The notes: a model not told the origin generated them from the letters alone. 63,544 nucleotides of DNA from Candidatus Woesearchaeota archaeon (GCA_002688775.1 NZDH01000016.1:1-63544); one strand, 5' to 3'; positions 7,106 through 61,844 are shown, counted from the stretch's first letter. A program made the numbers and translations.

Positions 7106-8374
7106 ATGGACTTACAACTACCAAAAGGAACAAGGGATATTGCACCTGAAGAGAAGATTGCCAAGGATAAGATAGTTAATACTCTGAAAGAAGTGTTTGA
7201 ACTGTATGGTTATGCTCCTTTGGAAACGCCTTTGCTTGAGAAATATGATGTTTTGTCTTCGAAATATGCCGGCGGCAATGAGATTTTGAAGGAAACATTT
7301 AGGTTGAAAGATCAAGGAGATAGAGAACTTGGGTTAAGATATGATTTAACAGTTCCAATGTGCAGATTTGTTGGCATGAATCCTGCAATGAAGATGCCTT
7401 TCAAGCGTTACCAAATTGGGGAAGTTTTCAGGGATGGCCCTGTAGGTTCTTCTAGATACAGGCAGTTCACCCAATGCGATGTTGATGTTGTCGGCTCATC
7501 TTCAATGTCTGCTGATGCTGAAATAATGGCCTTGATTTATTCTGCTTTTAAAAAACTGAATCTTGATGTTGTTATCAAAGTAAACAACAGGAAATTGCTT
7601 AATGATGTTCTTGACTATTGCGGTATTGAAAAAAACAAACAAGAAGCTGTAATCCTTTCGATTGATAAATTAGAGAAAATGGGCATCGATGTTGTCAAAG
7701 GTGAATTGAAAAAACAAGATATAGACGACAAAACAATCGGCAAGATAATCGATATCCTGAACATAAAGGGGAATAATGAAGAAAAAATAGCGCAAATAAA
7801 GAATATGATAAAAGAATCTGAAGGTTTGGAGGAGATACAGCAATTATTGAAATTCCTGAAAAATATAAACTTTGAAGCTGATTTTGATGTTTCTTTAGCA
7901 AGAGGATTGTCTTATTACACAGGGACTGTTGCTGAAACGTTCATCAAAAATAGCAATGTAAAAAGTTCTGTCTGCGCCGGCGGAAGATATGACAACATGA
8001 TTGGAGCATTCTTAGGCAAAGGAAATTTTCCGGCAGTCGGTGTCAGCTTTGGTGTTGACAGGATCTACGATGCCATTAAACAAAAAAATAAGCAGAAAAC
8101 CAATACAAAAATTTATGTCATTCCGATCAAGACATTAGACGAAAGCATGAAAATAGCTCAAAAATTAAGAGATGCTGGAATAAATACAGATATTGATTCT
8201 ATGGATAGGGGTCCTAGCAAGAATCTTGAGTTTGCTAATTCTTTAGGCATTCCATACGTTGTTTTTGTCGGAAAAAAAGAACTGGAAGATAATAAACTGA
8301 AGTTAAGGGACATGAAGAGCGGGAAGGAAGAGTTAATGAGTATTGATGATGTTATAAAAAAATTAAAATCATAA
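7106..8374 (+). CDS. hisS: Histidyl-tRNA synthetase (full length, with anticodon-binding domain)
   Basis: 422 aa. PKGTRD, LRYDLTVP, FRDGPVGSSRYRQF, GGRYD, AVGVSFGVDR, plus a C-terminal anticodon-binding domain (IYVIPI...VFVGKKELE). Confidence 0.9.
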   Translation: MDLQLPKGTRDIAPEEKIAKDKIVNTLKEVFELYGYAPLETPLLEKYDVLSSKYAGGNEILKETFRLKDQGDRELGLRYDLTVPMCRFVGMNPAMKMPFKRYQIGEVFRDGPVGSSRYRQFTQCDVDVVGSSSMSADAEIMALIYSAFKKLNLDVVIKVNNRKLLNDVLDYCGIEKNKQEAVILSIDKLEKMGIDVVKGELKKQDIDDKTIGKIIDILNIKGNNEEKIAQIKNMIKESEGLEEIQQLLKFLKNINFEADFDVSLARGLSYYTGTVAETFIKNSNVKSSVCAGGRYDNMIGAFLGKGNFPAVGVSFGVDRIYDAIKQKNKQKTNTKIYVIPIKTLDESMKIAQKLRDAGINTDIDSMDRGPSKNLEFANSLGIPYVVFVGKKELEDNKLKLRDMKSGKEELMSIDDVIKKLKS

Positions 8375-19057: not shown

Positions 19058-19225
19058 CTATCATAGGTGAAATAACCACTAGTATATAAATCTTTTGCTA
19101 TTGGTCAATAGTAACAAAATAGGTAATAGGTAAGTGGGTTTATAAAGGGTTATATATAGTAGGTAGAATTTGGCTGAATTAGGGGTTAAAAAAGGGAGAT
19201 TTGGTGTTTGGGTATAGGGGCTTAT

Positions 19226-19474
19226 TTATTTGTAAATATTCCTTCTGTGGCCGGCCTCAATAACAAAAATCATTAACTTATTTTCTTTTATATCTAAAAT
19301 AACCCTATAGTCGCCTACTCTTAAACCATAATATGGCCCTACTAACTTTTTAACATGAGCATGCGGTCTTATCCTGCATCTTTCAAGTGTAGAGACTATT
19401 CTAACTTGTATATCTTTATTTAGTTTTTTTATTTGTTTAAAAAATCTATCAGAATATATTAATTTGTACATCAT
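19226..19474 (-). CDS. relE: RelE/ParE-family type II toxin
   Basis: 82 aa. ...KKLVGPYYGLRVGDYRVILDIKENKLMIFVIEAGHRRNIYK. 4-nt overlap with the upstream antitoxin. Confidence 0.75.
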   Translation of the reverse strand: MMYKLIYSDRFFKQIKKLNKDIQVRIVSTLERCRIRPHAHVKKLVGPYYGLRVGDYRVILDIKENKLMIFVIEAGHRRNIYK

Positions 19475-19689
19475 AGTCCGAGCTTCTTCTTAAGTTGCTC
19501 ATGAGTAATATATTTACCTTCCTTGAATTCCTTCTCAGCTTGCTTTATATGTCTCTTTGTTTGTTCAGACAATTCAAGAGTATCTTCCAATAAATCCCAA
19601 ATAATATCTTCATAACTTTCTTTATCATACATTTTTCTGATTTTAAGTTCTTTCATCAGTTTATTAGTTACTTGAATTGTAGTTGCCAT
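19471..19689 (-). CDS. Cognate antitoxin (small helical protein)
   Basis: 72 aa, directly upstream of and overlapping the RelE-like gene. C-terminus ...KYITHEQLKKKLGL. Confidence 0.6.
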   Translation of the reverse strand: MATTIQVTNKLMKELKIRKMYDKESYEDIIWDLLEDTLELSEQTKRHIKQAEKEFKEGKYITHEQLKKKLGL

Positions 19690-19785
19690 AGCAATTATAT
19701 AGGTTGCTATAGTATATAAACCTTTCGATTTTTAGAGTTCAAATTACTGAAAAACTTTATATATCTCCTTTAAACTATTTCTTAT

Positions 19786-20361
19786 ATGGTTGGCAACATT
19801 CCGAATTACACTAAAATTGATGTTCTTCGATGTTTTTTAAGGCTTGAAAAGAACATCGGAAGGCAGGATCTGGCAGATGAGCTTGACCTTGGAGAGGGCA
19901 CTGTAAGGACAATTTTAGATGTCTTAAAGTCCAAGAAATTGATCGATTCCACAAAAAAAGGGCATTTCCTGAGCAGGAAAGGGGTTGAAATCTTAAAAAA
20001 TATTTTTGAATCTGTCAGTTTGCCTAAAGCAGTTGAAGTAAAAAATATCTATCCTGAATTTCGGAAAGTTGCTATTAATATAAGGAAAGCTCCTGCACTG
20101 AATGGATTATATAAACTTAGAGATTTGGCTGTCAAGAACGGAGCTGATGGCGCAATAATATTAAAATTTGAAAACAAGCTTTATGCTCCTGAATCTGATG
20201 TTGAACGGGATTTTGGAGAGCTAGAAAAATATTTTGAATTAAAAAATAAAGATGTTTTAGTTGTTGCTTTTGCTAACAATAAAAAAGATGCTGAGAATGG
20301 AGCTTTTGCGATTGCTGTTGAGCTGAATAGTGAATTGGGGAAGTTTGTTGAGGGGGTTTGA
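19786..20361 (+). CDS. Winged-helix domain protein with an uncharacterised C-terminal domain
   Basis: 191 aa. IGRQDLADELDLGEGTVRTILDVLKSKKLI is HTH-like. Host-like composition. Confidence 0.5.
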   Translation: MVGNIPNYTKIDVLRCFLRLEKNIGRQDLADELDLGEGTVRTILDVLKSKKLIDSTKKGHFLSRKGVEILKNIFESVSLPKAVEVKNIYPEFRKVAINIRKAPALNGLYKLRDLAVKNGADGAIILKFENKLYAPESDVERDFGELEKYFELKNKDVLVVAFANNKKDAENGAFAIAVELNSELGKFVEGV

Positions 20362-20374
20362 TGGGTTTGTTTTA

Positions 20375-21520
20375 CTACAATTCACTCAAAGGAACCAGCA
20401 TTGTTGTACTTCCAAATATTCTTTGTAAGGCAATTAGATAATGTTCTGGTATATCTAATCCTACTGCTTCTTCTTTCTTAACTTGCTGGAGGTGATGTGC
20501 TGGATCATTCGGATCAATCTCATTTCTATAATATTGGTCTCTGTCAACTAGCTGGATTTCTCTTGTAACTTCAGGATGCGACTTGGCAGTTACTTTTCCA
20601 ATAAATTTGTAACTTCTGAATCCGTTCTCTTTTGGTTCATCATAATAATCCTCCATCTTAATAATCTTTATCCCAGATCTTCTTATACTTGATGCTTGTT
20701 TTAAATCTCTAGCAAATTCATGTACTTCATCTTCTGTTGCCAACCCAACTCTATGAGCTGCTCCGTCACTTACTACGTCATCTTCATCTATAACTCTTTG
20801 GACCAATGTTCTTGTGTTTTTTCTTTTGAATGATCGTTTTAATCTGTAGCTTACAAAAGGTGGACTATGAGTTCTGTAATGTTCGAAAGAAGGCAATTCA
20901 ACTCTGTGAATGTCCACATATCCGACATTATTTCTGTCGACAGTTTCTGTTACTAATGGCAACAATTGTGTAGTATCTAATACCTCATCTTGCATAAATG
21001 GAAGTAAATCCCGGTCATTAAAGTAAAAAAACTTAGAACCCTCTATTAAGAACCCTTCAATTCCACGTCCTTGCAGACTTTCTCTTTGATGCGATAAGAA
21101 TTCCCCTGTTTTTGTTCGGGCCATATAGTCATCAATAGTTTCCCTATAGCCATCAGCCGATCCTGGAATGCTGTGAGCCCGATATAATTCGTGAGGGTTG
21201 GTTCCAAGATCAATTCCAAGTGTACTTTTATGCTCCTCATCACCTACAAATTTTCCATTAACTACTAACACAACACGTTTAGTTGGGCCTTTTCCTAGAA
21301 CTTCCTGTGCAAGATCCAAAGCAAATGAATAAGTTGAATTGTCTAATACAGCTTTAACATATTGAAATTCTTGTTCAGCATCTGATAATAATTGAGCGTC
21401 TAACTTTTGATGATTTCCTGTTCTAATTCCCCTACGTATAATGCCCATTGCTCTGTAAAGAGGATTACTTGGCCTCGAATAATTTCTCATAATGTTAGGT
21501 TCATTATATTTTGTTCCCAT
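20375..21520 (-). CDS. Foreign-composition protein with a C-terminal RelA/SpoT (RSH) synthetase-like nucleotidyltransferase domain
   Basis: 381 aa. The motif blocks occur in canonical order: YRLKRSFKRK (225-234), DGAAHRVGL (252-260), EDYYDEPKENGFRSYKF (290-306), EIQLVDRDQYY (321-331). The N-terminal ~220 aa are unassigned. Confidence 0.6.
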   Translation of the reverse strand: MGTKYNEPNIMRNYSRPSNPLYRAMGIIRRGIRTGNHQKLDAQLLSDAEQEFQYVKAVLDNSTYSFALDLAQEVLGKGPTKRVVLVVNGKFVGDEEHKSTLGIDLGTNPHELYRAHSIPGSADGYRETIDDYMARTKTGEFLSHQRESLQGRGIEGFLIEGSKFFYFNDRDLLPFMQDEVLDTTQLLPLVTETVDRNNVGYVDIHRVELPSFEHYRTHSPPFVSYRLKRSFKRKNTRTLVQRVIDEDDVVSDGAAHRVGLATEDEVHEFARDLKQASSIRRSGIKIIKMEDYYDEPKENGFRSYKFIGKVTAKSHPEVTREIQLVDRDQYYRNEIDPNDPAHHLQQVKKEEAVGLDIPEHYLIALQRIFGSTTMLVPLSEL

Positions 21521-21610
21521 TTTGAAACAATCAAATCACCATGAGTGTTATTTAAACCTTTCTGTTTGTACTACTAGAAGGTGGTGTTGATTTATTTTAG
21601 AAATAAATTA

Positions 21611-23179
21611 TCACATTAATAACGATCGTGCTATTCCTTTATATCGACTTGAGCTTAATCCACGGTTCGGTGAATTTAAATCAGCCACATGCTGCCAATA
21701 ATTTGGCATGAGGCTTCTGAGCGCTTCTACTCCTTCAAGAGTAAAAAACTTATGTTTTTCCGGATCAAGTTGATCCACATCATCTAATGGTGTTACTCTT
21801 CCGTCTGAATTGGGCGCATTAACGCCATAAGTTCTGAGAAATCCAAGAATGGCTTCCCTGAAATCTCTGGTGTGTCGATAATTTTGCTGGCGCAATTCAG
21901 GATGGTCATCAAGTGATTGGATCACTTTTCTTGGCAAGGGATCCCATACCATCCAATCTCGTGCAGGCCCATATATTGTAAGTCCTCCGTAGAAGTTGCC
22001 TCTTTGTTTGCTTCTTATTTCATCATCAACTGTATGTTTAATTCTTGCAATTTCAGGAAATTTTTCATAAAATCCAATGACTTGGTCTGATAATTCTAAT
22101 GTTGCTCGTCCCATTTCTCTTGTGCTGACAATCGCTAACCATTGTAGGGCTGCAGTTCTACTTGCTCTTAAAGTTCCCAATATATATGGGGGGAGTTCAT
22201 TAAAAGTTTCACTTGCATGGTGCAATGGCAAAATCGATTCGAAAACCATCCTAATTCTTTCAGCACCTGACATAGGTACTGCATGATCCCTAACTGTGCC
22301 ATACATTTCTCTCAAATACTGGCCTGTTTCGTCTGTGTCGTTAAACGCTTTATATATCCCTCTTTGAGTTACAGGTCTAACCAACTGCCCTGTTTCCCTC
22401 ATATTTACATTTCTGTCAGCATTCTTTATCGAAATTCTTCTAAAAGTTACATCAGGATGTTCCTTGGCGCTAGGTGCTACATCAAATCTCCTATATTGAT
22501 CTCCAACGGAAAAAGGATAAGGACTTCTATCAGGAAATCGCGTGACCCCAAAAATAAGATGGGCCGCTCCGGTTATACTTTGTTCAAGATCTTCTCTTTT
22601 AGATGCTCTAACACTAGGAGGTATGTACCCCATTAATTCTGTCCTTATTTCGTCCCTTTTTCTGGATATTGTTTCTTGTAGCTGCACAGTAAGAGCTTCT
22701 CTTTTTTCATGATTACCTTCAATTGTCGCAGATCTCCACCCCTCATTTAAAATCTGCACTTCTGCATCATCTTCTGGCCTATCATGCCCTGTGTGTCCCA
22801 GCAGAATCATGAAATCAAGCGGGACATTTGCAAGTTTGGAATTTCTCAGTGCTTCAACTACATTTCTGTCAATATGTGAGAATGCGTGCAAGCCGCTATT
22901 TCTTCTAGGCCCAAGTGATTTTGCAGCTTCTCTGGTTGAATCTTCAAATCTTTGTGCTATTTCATATTCCGCACCACTTAACCAATCTGGAAACCGGGAA
23001 AAACTTTCCTGAAAGGATTCTCTGTCAAAAATGCTGCCAATATGATAACCGTCAACTACAACAAATTTTCTGCCTTGTTGCCCATCCTGAACAGAATATC
23101 CGGAAGCGCTTGTAGGACTATACCTACCGAGAGATTGTGTTAAGAATTCTAATCCCCTTCTTACTATTGGTAAATCCAT
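21611..23179 (-). CDS. Foreign-composition 522-aa protein with degenerate metallophosphoesterase (ApaH/PPP-like) motif spacing
   Basis: FSHIDR (100-105), LLGHTGHDRP (126-135) and GNHE (155-158) have the spacing of GDxHG/GDxxDRG/GNH[ED]. The remaining ~360 aa are unassigned. Lies 90 nt upstream of the RSH-like gene on the same strand. Confidence 0.5.
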   Translation of the reverse strand: MDLPIVRRGLEFLTQSLGRYSPTSASGYSVQDGQQGRKFVVVDGYHIGSIFDRESFQESFSRFPDWLSGAEYEIAQRFEDSTREAAKSLGPRRNSGLHAFSHIDRNVVEALRNSKLANVPLDFMILLGHTGHDRPEDDAEVQILNEGWRSATIEGNHEKREALTVQLQETISRKRDEIRTELMGYIPPSVRASKREDLEQSITGAAHLIFGVTRFPDRSPYPFSVGDQYRRFDVAPSAKEHPDVTFRRISIKNADRNVNMRETGQLVRPVTQRGIYKAFNDTDETGQYLREMYGTVRDHAVPMSGAERIRMVFESILPLHHASETFNELPPYILGTLRASRTAALQWLAIVSTREMGRATLELSDQVIGFYEKFPEIARIKHTVDDEIRSKQRGNFYGGLTIYGPARDWMVWDPLPRKVIQSLDDHPELRQQNYRHTRDFREAILGFLRTYGVNAPNSDGRVTPLDDVDQLDPEKHKFFTLEGVEALRSLMPNYWQHVADLNSPNRGLSSSRYKGIARSLLM

Positions 23180-23326
23180 TGTTAAACTAATGTTTTGCTA
23201 AATTACAGCAAACAATCTATCTTTTCGTTTTCTCCTCTTATTTCAACAACCCCCAATAGCGATAAAGTGATTTCTTACTTTAAAAAGCTATGCCTTTTGG
23301 ATTATATAAATTATATAGAACCAGAT

Positions 23327-24769
23327 TTAGTAGCTCTTCCCGAAAACAGCCCATGATTTTGCTTCTTTTCCGCATTGTACGCACTTGCCTTGCGCTTGCT
23401 TTTGCTCAAAAGGGATACACCTGCATGATGCGCCTTCAGCCTTGTCTTTAATCAAGTCTTCGCAGCCCATGCTGCCGCAGAATAAGACTTTGGCCATCTT
23501 TTTGTCTTTAATCGCTTTAATAAAATCATCAAAATTCTTGACTTCAACAATACTTTTTGTCAGATATTCTTTTGCTTTCTTGAACATTGAATCCTGCATG
23601 TCATCCAAAGCCTGCTCGATTTTTTTCTCCCAGTCTTTTGTTTTTATCTCGATTTTTTCATTAGTGTCTCTTCTTACAATTACAAGCTTGTCAGCTTCCA
23701 CTTCTTTTGGGCCGATCTCTATTCTTAGCGGAATCCCTTTCAGTTCCCATTCATTGAATTTCCAGCCGGGGGTATAGCCATCCCTGTCATCAAGCAAAAC
23801 ATTATAGTTTTTTGATCTTAATTTTTTTATAATATCTTTTGCTTTTGCAACTATTGGGTCTTTGTTGCCTTTGAATACAATTGGAACAACAACAAATTGT
23901 ATAGGGGCTATTTTTGGAGGCAAGACCAGGCCTTTATCATCCCCATGGACCATGACAATCGCGCCGATTGTTCTTGTGCTTAAGCCCCATGAAGTTGTCC
24001 AGGCAAATTTTTCCTTTTCGTCCTTATCAAGAAATTTTATTCCGAATGGCTTTGAGAAGTTTTGGCCAAGAAAATGCGATGTGCCCATCTGCAGTGCCTT
24101 GCCGTCTGGCATGAACGCTTCAACTGCGGTTGTGTAATCAGCTCCTGCAAATTTTTCCTTTTCTGTTTTTTTGCCTGCAATTACTGGAATTGCCATAAAA
24201 GTTTCAATCAGATCGGTATATTCAAATAATTGCTGCATTACTTCTTTTTCAGCTTCTTCTTTTGTTGCATGCGCTGTATGGCCTTCCTGCCATAGGAATT
24301 CCCTTGTTCTTAGGAATGGCTTTGCATGCTTGAATTCCCATCTTACAACTGAATTCCATTGGTTAAGCAATAAAGGCAAGTCCCTCCATGATCTTATCCA
24401 TTTTGCATAGCTTTCGTACATCACTGTTTCTGATGTCGGCCTTATCGCCAGTTTCTCCTGCAATTCTGAATTTCCGCCTCTTGTTACCCATGCAACTTCC
24501 GGTGTAAAGCCTTCAAAATGGTCTGCCTCTTTTTTCAGCAAACTTTCCGGTATAAACATCGGGAAATAACAGTTCTTGTGGCCTGATCTTTTTATCTTGT
24601 CATCAAAAATTCTTTGAATTTTTTCCCAAATAGAATAAGAGTTTGGCTTGAAGACAATGCAGCCAGAGACAGAGCTGTAATCAATCATATCTGCCTTTAG
24701 AACAACCTGATTGTACCACTCATTAAAATCTTCAGATTTTTTTACATTAAGACCTAGTTTTTCTTCCAT
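23327..24769 (-). CDS. proS: Prolyl-tRNA synthetase (archaeal/eukaryotic type with C-terminal Zn-binding domain)
   Basis: 480 aa. FNEWYNQVVLKADMIDY..., class II motifs, C-terminal Cys cluster and ...FGKSY end. Confidence 0.92.
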   Translation of the reverse strand: MEEKLGLNVKKSEDFNEWYNQVVLKADMIDYSSVSGCIVFKPNSYSIWEKIQRIFDDKIKRSGHKNCYFPMFIPESLLKKEADHFEGFTPEVAWVTRGGNSELQEKLAIRPTSETVMYESYAKWIRSWRDLPLLLNQWNSVVRWEFKHAKPFLRTREFLWQEGHTAHATKEEAEKEVMQQLFEYTDLIETFMAIPVIAGKKTEKEKFAGADYTTAVEAFMPDGKALQMGTSHFLGQNFSKPFGIKFLDKDEKEKFAWTTSWGLSTRTIGAIVMVHGDDKGLVLPPKIAPIQFVVVPIVFKGNKDPIVAKAKDIIKKLRSKNYNVLLDDRDGYTPGWKFNEWELKGIPLRIEIGPKEVEADKLVIVRRDTNEKIEIKTKDWEKKIEQALDDMQDSMFKKAKEYLTKSIVEVKNFDDFIKAIKDKKMAKVLFCGSMGCEDLIKDKAEGASCRCIPFEQKQAQGKCVQCGKEAKSWAVFGKSY

Positions 24770-28429: not shown

Positions 28430-28852
28430 TTATGCTTGTGGCCGCCTTGCTGTATTGGTAAAATTAATTTGTCCGATAAGATTATCTGTCTTCAATTCAT
28501 AATCAGGGTAAGCTGCCTGGACAAGCTTCAAGAGATTTTGATAGATTCCACTACGGTATGAATATCCAGAAAAAAGCAAGGCTCGCCTCAATTGATTTGG
28601 TTCATCTTCAGATATAAGATAAAAATTTAATTCGGTTTTTCCGAACAGATCATACTTAGCCTGGCTAACCCCCCTTTCCATCTGGCCTCTCAGTATTGTC
28701 AATACAGTTCTAACCTCTTGGTGTGTTATGGCATCTAAAGTCTCTCTTGCTTCTTGGACTGTTGGAGTCACTTCCCCTATAAGAAAATCGATAAATCTGG
28801 GTTTTAATTTATGTCCGAAAAGTAATTCCCCAACATCAAGTTTTACCGCCAT
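28430..28852 (-). CDS. Foreign-composition hypothetical protein (140 aa)
   Basis: The ORF has a TTTATAAAA box about 30 nt upstream of the ATG. No family recognised. Confidence 0.55.
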   Translation of the reverse strand: MAVKLDVGELLFGHKLKPRFIDFLIGEVTPTVQEARETLDAITHQEVRTVLTILRGQMERGVSQAKYDLFGKTELNFYLISEDEPNQLRRALLFSGYSYRSGIYQNLLKLVQAAYPDYELKTDNLIGQINFTNTARRPQA

Positions 28853-28924: not shown

Positions 28925-29416
28925 TTAGAATCTGGTGTCGGCAACTAAATCGTCTATACTTTCGTAAGACCACCCAAACAATTCGGATAATCGTTGAAAA
29001 TTGGCAGATGATGGTAAACTTATACCTTGTAAGTATTTGTAAATCATTTTTTCGCTTAAGTCCATTATTTTGGCAAGCCAATAGTCCGATTTGCCTTTTT
29101 TTCCCAAACTATCCCTTAATAATGTACTAAAGGCAATATTTTCTGGTCTGGACTGTCTCTCAAGTGCTAAAGCTTCTTCATAATGGGCATCGGAGTTATA
29201 CCCTTTTCGTCTAGCCAGAGCGTCCCTATATTGGCTTCTGGTGGCAAAATTACTTCGCTTGAGCTGTCGTGGCCTTTCAACATACCTTCTTGCTGTACTG
29301 TATGATACCTTCAATTCATCTGCTGTCCCAACTAGAGTGCTACCTCCATCGTATATTCTCTGCATGCCCCGGATAGTTTTATAAGGGGTTTTATTATGGG
29401 GTTGCATAGTTACCAT
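28925..29416 (-). CDS. Foreign-composition protein with two HTH motifs (N-terminal resolvase/sigma-r4-like, C-terminal XRE-like)
   Basis: 163 aa. LVGTADELKVSYSTARRYV and YWLAKIMDLSEKMIYKYLQGISLPSSANFQRLSELFG. Confidence 0.6.
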   Translation of the reverse strand: MVTMQPHNKTPYKTIRGMQRIYDGGSTLVGTADELKVSYSTARRYVERPRQLKRSNFATRSQYRDALARRKGYNSDAHYEEALALERQSRPENIAFSTLLRDSLGKKGKSDYWLAKIMDLSEKMIYKYLQGISLPSSANFQRLSELFGWSYESIDDLVADTRF

Positions 29417-29688: not shown

Positions 29689-29721
29689 TATTTCTCTTTT
29701 GTTTTTAAAGGTTTGTTAAAA

Positions 29722-29807
29722 TGAGCCTGGAGGGATTCGAACCCCCACTGCCAGGTTTCATCTAAATAACCGAAGCCTAGTTTGCTATCCAGTTACAATA
29801 CAGGCCC
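29722..29807 (-). tRNA. tRNA-Arg (anticodon TCG) with a 13-nt intron at or next to position 37/38
   Basis: Minus-strand fold read by eye. Acceptor GGGCCTG/CAGGCTC. D stem TTGT/GCAA. Anticodon stem CTAGG/CCTGG enclosing 20 nt (CTTCGG + TTATTTAGATGAA + A). T arm GGGGG-TTCGAAT-CCCTC. 86 nt = 73 + 13. Confidence 0.8.
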
Positions 29808-29866
29808 ATGAAAATAACCCTAAATAGTTTAATATTTAAAACTATTTAAAATAAGAAAGAATTAGT

Positions 29867-40801: not shown

Positions 40802-41461
40802 TTAATTAGAAGAATAAGGTTTTACAATATATCCTTGTCTGAGTGCAAAAGGATGTAGTAAAAGGGATCTTGCCCTGTCAGATCCAATTGAGTGTACTGT
40901 ACTTGGTTTTGCTGCTATATAAGGGGCAATTTTATCAAGGAAAGCACTTCTTGCCCCTTCAAATCTTTCTTTGCCAGTGCCCCTCTCAAGAAATCCAAAG
41001 CCATGAATGTAATAACCGTCTCTTTCTGTTCTGATATCATCTATTTCTGCATAATGCCCTTGACTGATTTCTTTAACACTGGTCCTTACTACAACAGGGA
41101 TATTGGGGTTCATTGCTTGAGCATAGGCAATTACTTCATCCATCATATCAACAAGCAAACCATTCCCATTATGAGGTGGTGCAACGCTTGCCTTGTTCAC
41201 ATACTTAAATCTTATTCCATCAACTATGTAGTCTTCAACCATAGAATTGCTTGCCATTTCTCCATTAGCTGCCCCCCCTATTACAAGAGCTTCAAGACGA
41301 GTTGGAGAAAGTGGGTTGTTTCTTTGGAAAAATTCTCGATCAACTAAACTGTTTCTTTGATGTAAAAAGGCCCTTTGAGTAGATTCCTGCACAGCTCCAA
41401 AAAGTTCTGGTGGAAACCAGTTATCTGGAGTTGGGTGCACATGCAAAGCTATGTCGCTCAT
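40802..41461 (-). CDS. Foreign-composition hypothetical protein (219 aa) with a weak GNAT motif-A-like segment
   Basis: VAPPHNGNGLLVDMMDEVIAYAQ loosely resembles the acetyl-CoA-binding motif A. Nothing else assigned. Confidence 0.45.
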   Translation of the reverse strand: MSDIALHVHPTPDNWFPPELFGAVQESTQRAFLHQRNSLVDREFFQRNNPLSPTRLEALVIGGAANGEMASNSMVEDYIVDGIRFKYVNKASVAPPHNGNGLLVDMMDEVIAYAQAMNPNIPVVVRTSVKEISQGHYAEIDDIRTERDGYYIHGFGFLERGTGKERFEGARSAFLDKIAPYIAAKPSTVHSIGSDRARSLLLHPFALRQGYIVKPYSSN

Positions 41462-47205: not shown

Positions 47206-47517
47206 ATGAGAGAAACAAATCATGGTGTAGTTTTAAAGGAGCAAGATGGACTTCATAGGGGGGAGTTATTAGTCAGGCCCCTATACACTGATATTGTGGT
47301 ACCGGTTCAATTTAGAGATGTTGTTTGGTTTCCACGTGGAACTGATGGGAGGGAAACACCCATGGAGTTTAGGTTAGCTCATGATGGCCATGATCCATCG
47401 ACAGGTATGTTGAATGTTACTGTACAATCACCAACATTAAGGCCTGTAAGTATAGACGTGCATGTAAGTCAAATTGGAGTAGATTTTGGCTATAAAGTAG
47501 TTGAATATCATCACTAA
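47206..47517 (+). CDS. Foreign-composition hypothetical protein (103 aa, beta-rich)
   Basis: R/H/V/P-rich. No family recognised. Confidence 0.5.
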   Translation: MRETNHGVVLKEQDGLHRGELLVRPLYTDIVVPVQFRDVVWFPRGTDGRETPMEFRLAHDGHDPSTGMLNVTVQSPTLRPVSIDVHVSQIGVDFGYKVVEYHH

Positions 47518-47580: not shown

Positions 47581-47862
47581 ATGGCATCTAGCTTAGGTGG
47601 ATTGGGTTCAGAAACTATAAGTTATTCGGATTTGTCTGTTGACCTAGTCACACTTAGATCGACAGTTTCTCAACTGGAAAAGGCTGTTGAAGTTGGAATA
47701 GTGACTAAGGCAAATCTACTGTATATTATAAGGAGTTTAATTCAAGCAGGTAGATTCAGTCCGGATTCAAGGGAAATGGCGGTTATTGAGAATTTTTATT
47801 TAGACACTTATCGTCAGCACTTGCCAGAAGATATAAAGTATGCTGGCGCTAGAGAACCTTAG
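47581..47862 (+). CDS. Foreign-composition hypothetical protein (93 aa, helical)
   Basis: Follows 47206-47517 on the same strand. No family recognised. Confidence 0.5.
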   Translation: MASSLGGLGSETISYSDLSVDLVTLRSTVSQLEKAVEVGIVTKANLLYIIRSLIQAGRFSPDSREMAVIENFYLDTYRQHLPEDIKYAGAREP

Positions 47863-58172: not shown

Positions 58173-58448
58173 ATGAGGTATACACAATTATTACGAAAAG
58201 TAAATGAAGCTCAGAAAGCGCCCAGGCCATATGATTATGGAAATTTTGATGAAAGTTGGGATCGAGTCTTTAGAAATGCCAGAAGGATTTTAGAAAATCC
58301 TTCCTCTAGCATCGACGATAAAACACGTGTAGTTGATATTATGGGAAATTTAATTGTGGATTTATCTAAGCATAGACCTTATGGAGAGGTGCTGAAATAT
58401 TTAAGAATTTTCCAACAATCAGTTCAAGAATACTATACTGTGAATTAA
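58173..58448 (+). CDS. Foreign-composition orphan (91 aa) between sdo1 and rrp4
   Basis: MRYTQLLRKVNEAQKAPRPYDYGNFDESWDRVFRNARRILENP... No family recognised. Same strand as the operon. Confidence 0.5.
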   Translation: MRYTQLLRKVNEAQKAPRPYDYGNFDESWDRVFRNARRILENPSSSIDDKTRVVDIMGNLIVDLSKHRPYGEVLKYLRIFQQSVQEYYTVN

Positions 58449-60714: not shown

Positions 60715-61029
60715 ATGTTTGAAAAACATGCAGTTATTGGAAGATTCAAGGATGATGTTGCACAACATCTTGAAGTAATTGAAAGCGAGATTGAAAAAGG
60801 GAACAGGGAAGAAGCAACACTTTGGCTTAATGAACTTCTTATAATGAAAAAAACTTGGGAAACTTCTTTAAATACACCAAATTTTGCAATCACTGCACAT
60901 TCATGGGTGAATCCCTCAACTTTGGATACTGGATCTACAAAACATCTTGCTGCAGAAAGAATTCGAATAGTGGATGGAGCAATTGCACTTGTTCACGAAA
61001 AATTTCAGGCTAAAGGTTGGAGTACCTGA
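60715..61029 (+). CDS. Foreign-composition hypothetical protein (104 aa)
   Basis: ORF only. Its 3' end overlaps the convergent 61005-61844 gene by 25 nt. Confidence 0.45.
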   Translation: MFEKHAVIGRFKDDVAQHLEVIESEIEKGNREEATLWLNELLIMKKTWETSLNTPNFAITAHSWVNPSTLDTGSTKHLAAERIRIVDGAIALVHEKFQAKGWST

Positions 61030-61844
61030 TTAACAATAATTCTAGAAACATTTTGACCTCTTACTCTATCTCCACTCTCAACCAAAGTATGATGTAATTC
61101 ATAATGGATTGGATCAACACCCTGTTGCACCAAAAACTTTCTGGCTCCTTCTTCACTTGCTAACTCACGTTCTAATCCTTGAAAATCTTTTCCCGATCTA
61201 AGATTTTGAACTTCAGCAATTTCATGGGCAAGTATTATACCTCTAACAGCGTGTTCAAAATCTTTCATCGTGGATTTATATCTTTCAAATCTTGGATCAT
61301 GTTTTAATGTGTACATTAAAGCTGTTATAAATGTTACAAAATTTTCTCTAACGTACATTTCTTGAAGATCAGAAGAAGTGCAACCAGCAAATAATATTGA
61401 CAAATTAGCTGTTTGTTCATTATGTAAACTTGAATATGATACATTTCTTCCGGAAGGATAAGTATGTGTTCGCTTTACTGGATCTGCAACTAATAACCAA
61501 TTATCATGACCCATTGCAAATTTGCCAGTTCTGGCAGCAATAGTTGCAGCGATATCACTTGTAGGCATATCATAACTTATACCATCATAGAGGACTGGTA
61601 ATTCACTTTCCGGAATGGGTTTTGGGATATGATGTGTAATTCTTCCTTCTAAAGTTTTAAGCCTTCCAAGCAAAGTTGATAGCTGTTGTCTAGTAGGTTT
61701 TTCGTCAGCAACTAAGTAGCTCATCAAGATATCATTAGGATATTTTTTTGTATCTGCCAGTCTGTGCAGTTCTGTAGGTCTGACCGGTTGCCTATAGTGT
61801 CTTGCAATCGTTTCTAGATCTTTAGCTGAATACATATAAACCAT
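61005..61844 (-). CDS. Foreign-composition hypothetical protein (279 aa)
   Basis: R/H/T/P-rich. Contains AHEIAE, which is not a canonical HExxH. No family recognised. Confidence 0.55.
   Translation of the reverse strand: MVYMYSAKDLETIARHYRQPVRPTELHRLADTKKYPNDILMSYLVADEKPTRQQLSTLLGRLKTLEGRITHHIPKPIPESELPVLYDGISYDMPTSDIAATIAARTGKFAMGHDNWLLVADPVKRTHTYPSGRNVSYSSLHNEQTANLSILFAGCTSSDLQEMYVRENFVTFITALMYTLKHDPRFERYKSTMKDFEHAVRGIILAHEIAEVQNLRSGKDFQGLERELASEEGARKFLVQQGVDPIHYELHHTLVESGDRVRGQNVSRIIVNQVLQPLA

Follow-up and report, generated by a model that had tools for sequence, protein, structure and literature searches.

A putative RSH-type synthetase and hydrolase gene pair in a variable genomic slot of a Woesearchaeota archaeon

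The subject of this analysis is a two-gene locus at positions 20,375 to 23,179 of a 63,544-nucleotide stretch of DNA from Candidatus Woesearchaeota archaeon (GCA_002688775.1 NZDH01000016.1:1-63544), the whole of which is called the window below. Two minus-strand open reading frames (ORFs) follow each other in the same direction, one of 522 aa upstream (21611..23179) and one of 381 aa downstream (20375..21520), with a gap of 90 nt. Both ORFs were confirmed at the coordinates given for them in a preliminary description made from the DNA alone, and all residue strings quoted there were found at the positions it gave. The 381-aa protein is very probably an enzyme with the synthetase (SYNTH) domain found in the RSH superfamily (RelA/SpoT homologues), and its 522-aa partner is, on sequence grounds, a likely and divergent RSH-type HD hydrolase. 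We somewhat favour the view that the two proteins act as an opposing pair. The locus as a whole is read tentatively as an accessory growth-control module of the toxSAS/SAH kind (toxic small alarmone synthetase and small alarmone hydrolase, a type IV toxin-antidote arrangement), and not as core housekeeping equipment.

Compared with Pfam, the 381-aa window protein alone matched RelA_SpoT (PF04607) at 23 bits (E 1e-4), under the gathering score of 27, whereas its homologue L010 from a Nanoarchaeota metagenome-assembled genome (MAG) exceeded that score with 29.2 bits; NCBIfam gave a weak YjbM/RelQ match and nothing else. A word-index search returned four homologues of about 385 aa with 31-41% identity, and L010, L012, L013 and L019 were added by DNA-level searches and neighbour look-ups, so that the homologues comprise P0002-P0005 and these four. 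The family, called RSH-like below, is rare, with about 10 sequences found among billions of proteins. A profile of nine sequences searched against PDB sequences retrieved RelQ of S. pneumoniae (2be3, E 1.9e-10), YwaC of B. subtilis (1.3e-9) and RelP of S. aureus (2.6e-9), while CapRel (E 0.025), FaRel2 (0.12) and long Rel (0.45) scored lower. The alignments with RelQ/RelP cover S-x-R226-x-K228, D252-x4-R257, D291-Y-Y-x-x-P-K-x-N-G(-Y) and E321-I-Q. The four RSH synthetase blocks pointed out in the preliminary description are therefore real and not due to chance, and the Pfam check proposed there is answered by the L010 match and the significant family profile.

Residues S224, R226, K228, D252 and R257 are invariant in 9/9 members of the RSH-like family, and K234, E321 and Q323 are kept in 8/9; all of them are present in the window protein. 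The AlphaFold2 model of this protein (pLDDT 79.5, pTM 0.82) was compared with the PDB using Foldseek, and the top 24 matches were all RelP, RelQ or other small alarmone synthetases (SASs), with E values from 4.5e-6 to 1.9e-4, probability 1.0 and a target TM of about 0.5; CapRel (2e-3) and long Rel ranked below them. The fold, with the catalytic Asp and Glu in place, agrees with the RSH-fold synthetase proposed earlier. Based on the sub-threshold Pfam match, the family profile, Foldseek and the conserved residues, the SYNTH domain was placed at residues ~205-345 (20486..20908, minus strand). PADLOC assigned the 381-aa protein to the defence candidate PDC-S33 (E 3e-6).

The first 204 residues (20909..21520, minus strand) form a family-specific alpha/beta domain conserved in 9/9 family members, with D60, G89, G102, G106, D130, S162, P188, T193 and P210 invariant in all nine. 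Pfam and PDB searches gave no relative for these ~200 residues. A PPX/GppA-like identity was considered for this domain and rejected, as the single-sequence match to an exopolyphosphatase (E 0.057) was not reproduced by family profiles.

The 522-aa window protein gave no match to Pfam or NCBIfam at E<=1. A word-index search with this protein or with a 36-member alignment, capped at 8000 candidates, also found no match, not even the query, whereas an exhaustive phmmer search of 1.84 billion representatives found 50 homologues, mostly of 470-580 aa, together with shorter fragments; a statement of 'no homologues' taken from the word-index search would therefore mislead. The protein belongs to a genuine, unannotated all-helical family of about 50 clusters, referred to here as HD-like. 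Two GTDB genome scans for this family gave no match in one case and two Woesearchaeota MAGs in the other.

The HD-like consensus GPRxYSGLxxYSHI / GHDxIED / KxxDRxxN corresponds to the three motifs by which the HD domain of RSH (p)ppGpp hydrolases is recognised in Rel and SpoT. Among the 36 members, R92, H102 and E136 are conserved in 36, H132 in 34, D133 in 32 (E in four more), D137 in 25 (E in six more), K252 in 34, D255 in 35 and N259 in 34; we take the catalytic and metal-binding roles of these residues to be those of their Rel/SpoT counterparts. When the 36-member profile was searched against 177,635 PDB sequences, SpoT (7qps) came first and Rel (9s6k) second, at E ~0.2 each, and both align with it exactly at the motifs and in collinear order. 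For a direct profile-profile comparison, a reference of 13 genuine RSH hydrolase domains was used, consisting of E. coli SpoT and 12 Rel/SAH genes from plasmids. In hhalign the 36-member family matched this reference with a probability of 79% (P=E=1.6e-5, score 45.7), and with a relaxed alignment threshold residues 65-322 matched SpoT 12-196. Of 31 controls, the reversed template gave E 0.34 and the 30 column shuffles E 0.19 at best (score 17). The putative HD core at residues 65-322 (22214..22987, minus strand) carries R92, S95-G96, H102, H132-D133, E136-D137, K252, D255 and N259.

The preliminary description had seen a degenerate calcineurin/ApaH-type motif set in this protein. H102 and H132-D133 of that set proved to be conserved, but D104 (10/36), R105 (14), G155 (20), N156 (10), H157 (11) and E158 (9) did not. 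The AlphaFold2 model (pLDDT 87) is nearly all helix, which an HD domain would allow but a calcineurin sandwich would not. A calcineurin/ApaH esterase was rejected, since neither the 522-aa protein nor its family matched Pfam Metallophos (PF00149), GNHE is not conserved and the model is helical instead of an alpha/beta sandwich. The idea of a divergent phosphoesterase partner that could remove the product of the synthetase survives in part: the protein is a candidate for such an activity, with the RSH-type HD class in place of calcineurin/ApaH.

Beyond the motifs, the HD-like protein has a ~50-aa insertion after the ED motif and a ~200-aa helical C-terminal extension (residues 323-522; 21614..22213, minus strand). 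The extension consists of confidently predicted helices and is kept within the family, e.g., in the L013 fragment (149 bits); it had no neighbour in the PDB profile search or in Foldseek searches of the PDB and BFVD.

The survey of homologue neighbourhoods showed that the association of the two genes is not confined to the window. An HD-like gene followed by an adjacent RSH-like gene was found three times: in the window, in L013, whose upstream fragment is the one scoring 149 bits against the HD-like profile, and in L019/L020, where the HD-like protein P0010 precedes a 429-aa RSH-like protein scoring 141 bits. These pairs occur in two genomic contexts, with 25-40% identity between members. A second sequence type of partner, type B, of 460-479 aa, is located upstream of the RSH-like gene in L010, L007 and the P0002 contig; it overlaps the RSH-like gene by 17 nt in L010 and by 4 nt in the P0002 contig, and lies 94 nt apart from it in L007. 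Type-B partners gave weak hhalign signals to HD domains, with E 0.027 when compared with the HD-like family and 0.013 when compared with the RSH hydrolases.

The closest relatives of the prolyl-tRNA synthetase (ProRS) encoded next to the module (23327-24769) belong to Woesearchaeota MAGs (76-85% identity), and the window is therefore assigned to a marine organism of this group. An archaeal host, as had been stated, is thereby confirmed, with Woesearchaeota/Nanoarchaeota-like relatives. Where the ProRS of relatives is 65-81% identical, the synteny on both flanks is retained; it comprises trypsin-like, MarC and ProRS genes on one side and genes for a PH0730-like winged helix-turn-helix (wHTH) protein, a 359-aa protein, TrmB, the proteasome and aCPSF1 on the other. 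In these relatives the slot between the ProRS and wHTH genes is occupied by a minus-strand gene similar to PRPP synthetase (6698-7567 in L035, ~1500-2358 in L037) or is empty (L038, 38-nt gap), and neither module gene was present in any of the 80 ProRS loci. No PRPP-synthetase homologue was found in the 63.5-kb window. Since the slot is filled differently or empty in close relatives, the module represents an insertion in a variable slot, and the inserted segment covers 20362..23326, between the ProRS gene and the PH0730-like wHTH gene (19786-20361). This supports the earlier claim of lateral acquisition, and does so on better grounds, those of synteny, than GC content. No convincing att-like flanking repeats or adjacent tRNA integration site were found around the module, and the sole noteworthy repeat was the promoter-like element described below. 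The slot of L035 also holds a 271-aa ORF.

Beside the RSH module, a minus-strand gene pair of the ParE type is located at 19226-19689. It consists of a ParE/RelE-type toxin gene of 82 aa (Pfam ParE_toxin, E 1e-7), which overlaps an upstream 72-aa gene by 4 nt. The pair is absent from the same interval in L035 and L037 and is therefore regarded as a second accessory insertion.

In groundwater Woesearchaeota the HD-like genes occupy a different, recurrent locus with the order DRG, AsnS-like, DUF371, HD-like gene and its variable follower, PUA protein and aIF5B. Flanking genes of this locus are 54-66% identical between genomes, whereas the pair itself is 25-40% identical or replaced, as one would expect if a hotspot held an accessory cassette that evolves fast. 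Across the genes compared, six contigs of separate sample origin have identical nucleotide sequences and carry no information on selection.

The composition of the module is unusual mainly at the protein level. The G + C content is 36.6% in the 381-aa gene and 40.6% in the 522-aa gene, compared with 35.7% in the window, and the whole module lies at the 90th percentile among windows of equal size. The description of its DNA as clearly GC-richer, made from spot counts (27/60 and 17/60) that are correct, is thus true in part. The excess is confined to codon positions 1 and 2; GC3 is 0.24 and 0.28 in the two genes, below the mean of 0.317 for the 64 ORFs in the window. This indicates an odd protein composition and not un-ameliorated foreign DNA, so GC fails as a sign of foreignness, and recent foreign DNA judged by GC was ruled out. 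The richness of both proteins in R, H, P, Q and D and their poverty in K, N and I, noted earlier, agrees with the calculated values: K+N+I is 0.150 and 0.119 in the two module proteins (window mean 0.235, sd 0.055), and R/(R+K) is 0.59 and 0.77 (window mean 0.32, sd 0.16).

Among 61 window ORFs that were inspected, ~17 have a TTTAWATA box starting 29-45 nt before the start codon, and its recurrence at -29 to -45 suggests short-leader or leaderless transcripts. Upstream of the RSH-like gene there is an element resembling a B recognition element and TATA box, AGG-TTTAAATA (21549..21559, minus strand), with the TATA starting 36 nt before the 381-aa start codon. It belongs to an element of ~22 nt (plus strand TA(T/G)T(A/T)TAAA(C/T)CTTT, coding strand AAAGG-TTTAWATA) that is repeated before two other minus-strand genes, and the three copies (19080-19102, 19710-19732 and 21549-21570) lie ~30-40 nt upstream of their genes. 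No TTTAWATA box was found nearer than -131 upstream of the HD-like gene. The synthetase gene may have its own putative promoter and may be transcribed alone here.

If these assignments hold, the 381-aa protein would be a pyrophosphokinase with ATP as the donor of the beta,gamma-pyrophosphate. The acceptor would be either the 3'-OH of a purine nucleotide, which would yield an alarmone of the (p)ppGpp or (pp)pApp type, or an RNA 3' end such as the tRNA CCA. The 522-aa protein, as a predicted HD-type metal-dependent pyrophosphohydrolase, would remove the same 3'-pyrophosphate, and the extra domains of both proteins might regulate or target the two activities. The module arrived by insertion between the ProRS and wHTH genes in this lineage, and the synthetase gene would have a canonical promoter of its own. 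We infer the substrates, product, toxicity and neutralisation from these assignments. The accessory nature of the module is proposed because it is absent from the corresponding slot in relatives, the ParE-type insertion is adjacent and the pair diverges faster than its flanks. A toxin-antidote-like, growth-arresting role in particular is put forward with some hesitation.

Several observations weigh against this reading. The closest PDB matches are the housekeeping SASs RelQ/RelP and not toxSASs, and the 90-nt gap with a promoter-like element of its own is atypical for a tight toxin-antitoxin operon. A search for relatives on viral contigs, limited by its patterns, found none. That diverged Woesearchaeota keep the pair in one place, between DUF371 and PUA/aIF5B, would also be explained by a physiological regulator passed on vertically over a long time. 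The two genes do not always occur together: the RSH-like gene of P0005/L009 has DUF371 directly upstream and no partner, and several HD-like genes are followed by ORFs of 174, 269, 352-354, 380 or 409 aa, in which RSH similarity was not detected. As to the hydrolase, its HD assignment draws on the motifs and one profile-profile comparison; Pfam HD models gave no match at E<=0.1 across the 36 HD-like members, and Foldseek with the full-length model gave none at E<0.1 and no significant neighbour in the PDB or BFVD, the match of highest probability being PDE10, a member of the HD superfamily (prob 0.5, TM 0.33-0.36).

An alternative is a housekeeping system resembling a Rel enzyme split over two genes, which would tune translation and growth through a (p)ppGpp-like messenger, possibly as a complex, with the extra domains as regulators. 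We consider this unlikely. The gene order HD-then-SYNTH is that of long RSHs, the active sites of both proteins look intact, the nearest solved relatives are RelQ/RelP, the fixed groundwater locus lies among translation genes (DRG GTPase, DUF371, PUA protein, aIF5B) and RelA/SpoT annotations are common in DPANN archaea (PMC8407392). However, a housekeeping role is difficult to reconcile with the rarity of both families (~10 RSH-like sequences and 50 HD-like clusters among billions of proteins), with the absence of the module from the same slot in close relatives of the window organism, with partners that are swapped or missing in some genomes and with a pair that evolves much faster than its neighbours. 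Moreover, Haloferax and Sulfolobus gave no sign of (p)ppGpp, which has never been detected in an archaeon (PMC8646023). A cycle acting on RNA 3' ends, in which the SYNTH domain pyrophosphorylates the tRNA CCA end and the HD-like enzyme restores it, with no free alarmone, would suit a toxin as well as a regulator; it is decidedly improbable in our judgement. The pyrophosphorylation of tRNA by RSH toxins (FaRel2, PhRel, CapRel) and its reversal are established, as SAHs also strip the tRNA 3'-pyrophosphate (bioRxiv 10.1101/2021.04.30.441581), and CapRel and FaRel2 are among the profile matches (E 0.025-0.12). The eight homologues of the 381-aa protein are all basic (pI 8.8-9.7), but the window protein itself is acidic (pI 6.1, SYNTH half 6.5), with the shift in both domains. 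The neighbours are related to RNA or translation, ProRS here and PUA protein and aIF5B elsewhere, but this argument is weak in small genomes rich in translation genes, and it is the nucleotide-acceptor loop of RelP/RelQ that the D-Y-Y-x-x-P-K-x-N-G-Y block most resembles. It is very unlikely that the genes form no functional pair, the HD-like protein acting on another phosphoester (e.g., NADPH, as MESH1 does) or nucleotide and the adjacency reflecting an insertion hotspot. HD-like genes precede at least four unrelated-looking ORF types (174, 269, 352-354 and 409 aa) besides the weakly RSH-matching 380-aa ORF, the genes upstream of RSH-like genes are of at least three types, and a separate promoter-like element precedes the synthetase gene. 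Against this, the two families are found side by side and in an unchanged order in three or more diverged lineages and in two genomic contexts, they belong to a single superfamily for which the pairing of its two activities is known, and type-B partners overlap the RSH-like gene by 4-17 nt.

A broader version of the toxin-antidote reading, which we think improbable, would see the HD-like family as an archaeal 'universal antidote' hub at the hotspot between DUF371 and PUA-aIF5B. The RSH-like protein would then be the sole recognisable one of a set of rapidly diversifying effectors and the window copy would have been transposed, as part of an undescribed DPANN conflict or growth-arrest system acting by 3'-pyrophosphorylation of nucleotides or tRNA. 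If true, this would be the first enzymatic entry to alarmone-type chemistry in Archaea. The ORFs that follow other HD-like genes may be ultra-divergent RSH-like proteins or unrelated cassettes. An ultra-divergent RSH-like identity of those of 350-410 aa was considered but found no support, as family HMM and hhalign comparisons gave E 0.009-0.6 and PDB searches no RSH. Such variable ORFs (174-409 aa) are found at the DUF371 and PUA-aIF5B locus in L014, L114, L117, L119, L017 and the P0007 contig; those of L014 and L114 are 39% identical, and the 380-aa ORF of L117 weakly matches the RSH-like family in hhalign (E 0.009).

Among known systems, the nearest counterpart in arrangement is FaRel/ATfaRel of Cellulomonas marina, in which the gene for the SAH ATfaRel directly precedes that for the toxSAS FaRel, whose toxicity the SAH neutralises through its hydrolase activity (bioRxiv 10.1101/575399). 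In both cases a synthetase gene has an HD-type hydrolase gene immediately upstream in the same orientation, the product of the synthetase can be removed by the hydrolase (here a prediction), and both systems are accessory and patchily distributed. Here, unlike in C. marina, the proteins are about twice as long (522 and 381 aa), with extra domains, their resemblance to bacterial RSH proteins of any kind is barely detectable and the host is archaeal; a 90-nt gap containing a promoter-like element separates the genes. In general, SAHs are ~200 aa and SASs ~200-250 aa long.

The 381-aa protein shares with RelQ and RelP (SAS1/SAS2 of Firmicutes), its best profile (E 2e-10) and fold matches, the R-x-K, D-x-x-G/A-x-R, D-Y-[IY]-x-x-P-K-x-N-G-Y and E-I-Q blocks. 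It differs from them in the extra conserved N-terminal domain of ~200 aa and in the change of 'Q-I-R-T' to 'Q-L-V-D', and the His of 'S-L-H' is not conserved in the RSH-like family; no evidence of the RelQ/RelP tetramer or of the allosteric pppGpp site was seen in the 381-aa protein. With CapRel it has in common a SYNTH domain fused to a second, non-catalytic domain in one polypeptide, a weak match restricted to the SYNTH core (profile E 0.025, Foldseek 2e-3) and the PADLOC PDC-S33 assignment. Unlike in CapRel, the extra domain is N-terminal, has no similarity to the CapRel antitoxin/sensor domain and is accompanied by a separate hydrolase partner. The 522-aa family has the R-x-x-S-G-x-x-x-x-H, H-D-x-x-E-D and K-x-x-D-R-x-x-N motifs in the same order as the HD domain of SpoT/Rel and the SAHs Mesh1, PbcSpo and PaSpo, but it has no Pfam HD match, carries the insertion and extension described above, and its full-length model retrieves no RSH hydrolases with Foldseek. 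The order HD-then-SYNTH is shared with bifunctional Rel; in contrast to the long RSHs (Rel/RelA/SpoT), two genes are involved, and Pfam/NCBIfam found no TGS or ACT domain in either.

RSH genes in archaea were first reported as rare cases of horizontal gene transfer (PMC3153485), while in several DPANN phyla RelA/SpoT annotations have since been reported for 19-69% of the genomes (PMC8407392); the rarity of RSH homologues in archaea assumed in the preliminary description agrees with the former report and not with the latter. As those annotations are published, RSH in a DPANN archaeon is not new in itself. Li et al. (2021) recorded RSH genes in Woesearchaeota, Pacearchaeota and Nanoarchaeota and likewise proposed lateral acquisition (PMC8407392). 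They come from routine eggNOG annotation and are presumably canonical, whereas the families described here escape the Pfam/NCBIfam thresholds and have their own architecture and gene pairing; the two sets may overlap. What is new is the unannotated HD-hydrolase family of ~500 aa, the SAS family with a conserved N-terminal domain, the pairing and relocation of the two families and the behaviour of a variable cassette at a fixed locus. The catalogue of RSH proteins gains a previously unannotated HD-hydrolase family of ~50 clusters and a new SAS architecture.

Signalling of the (p)ppGpp type is central to bacterial physiology, persistence and phage defence. At this locus, two RSH-superfamily enzymes of DPANN archaea that look intact are encoded next to each other and are open to direct expression and assay. 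The pair looks like a self-contained make-and-break nucleotide switch and would permit testing of alarmone-type chemistry in archaea, and the data suggest that modules of hydrolase plus synthetase change their genomic location in ultra-small archaea. Should the enzyme modify tRNA instead of making an alarmone, a second domain of life would be added to the range of RNA-pyrophosphorylating RSH chemistry.

Some further features of the window were recorded. The PH0730-like_N/DUF4443 winged-helix gene (19786-20361, plus strand) is convergent to the RSH-like gene, is 42-64% identical in relatives and lies outside the insertion; it has weak CasR/Csa3-type PADLOC matches (E 3e-4). Seven more R-rich/K-poor ORFs, with R/(R+K) of 0.59-0.80 against the mean of 0.32, are located at 28430-28852, 28925-29416, 40802-41461, 47206-47517, 47581-47862, 58173-58448 and 61005-61844. 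They have no Pfam family, save for a weak HTH_3 match in one, and may be other accessory or lineage-specific genes. The tRNA-Pro(CGG) gene at 29721-29808 (minus strand) is unusually long at 88 nt, with the anticodon at position 37, and possibly contains an intron.

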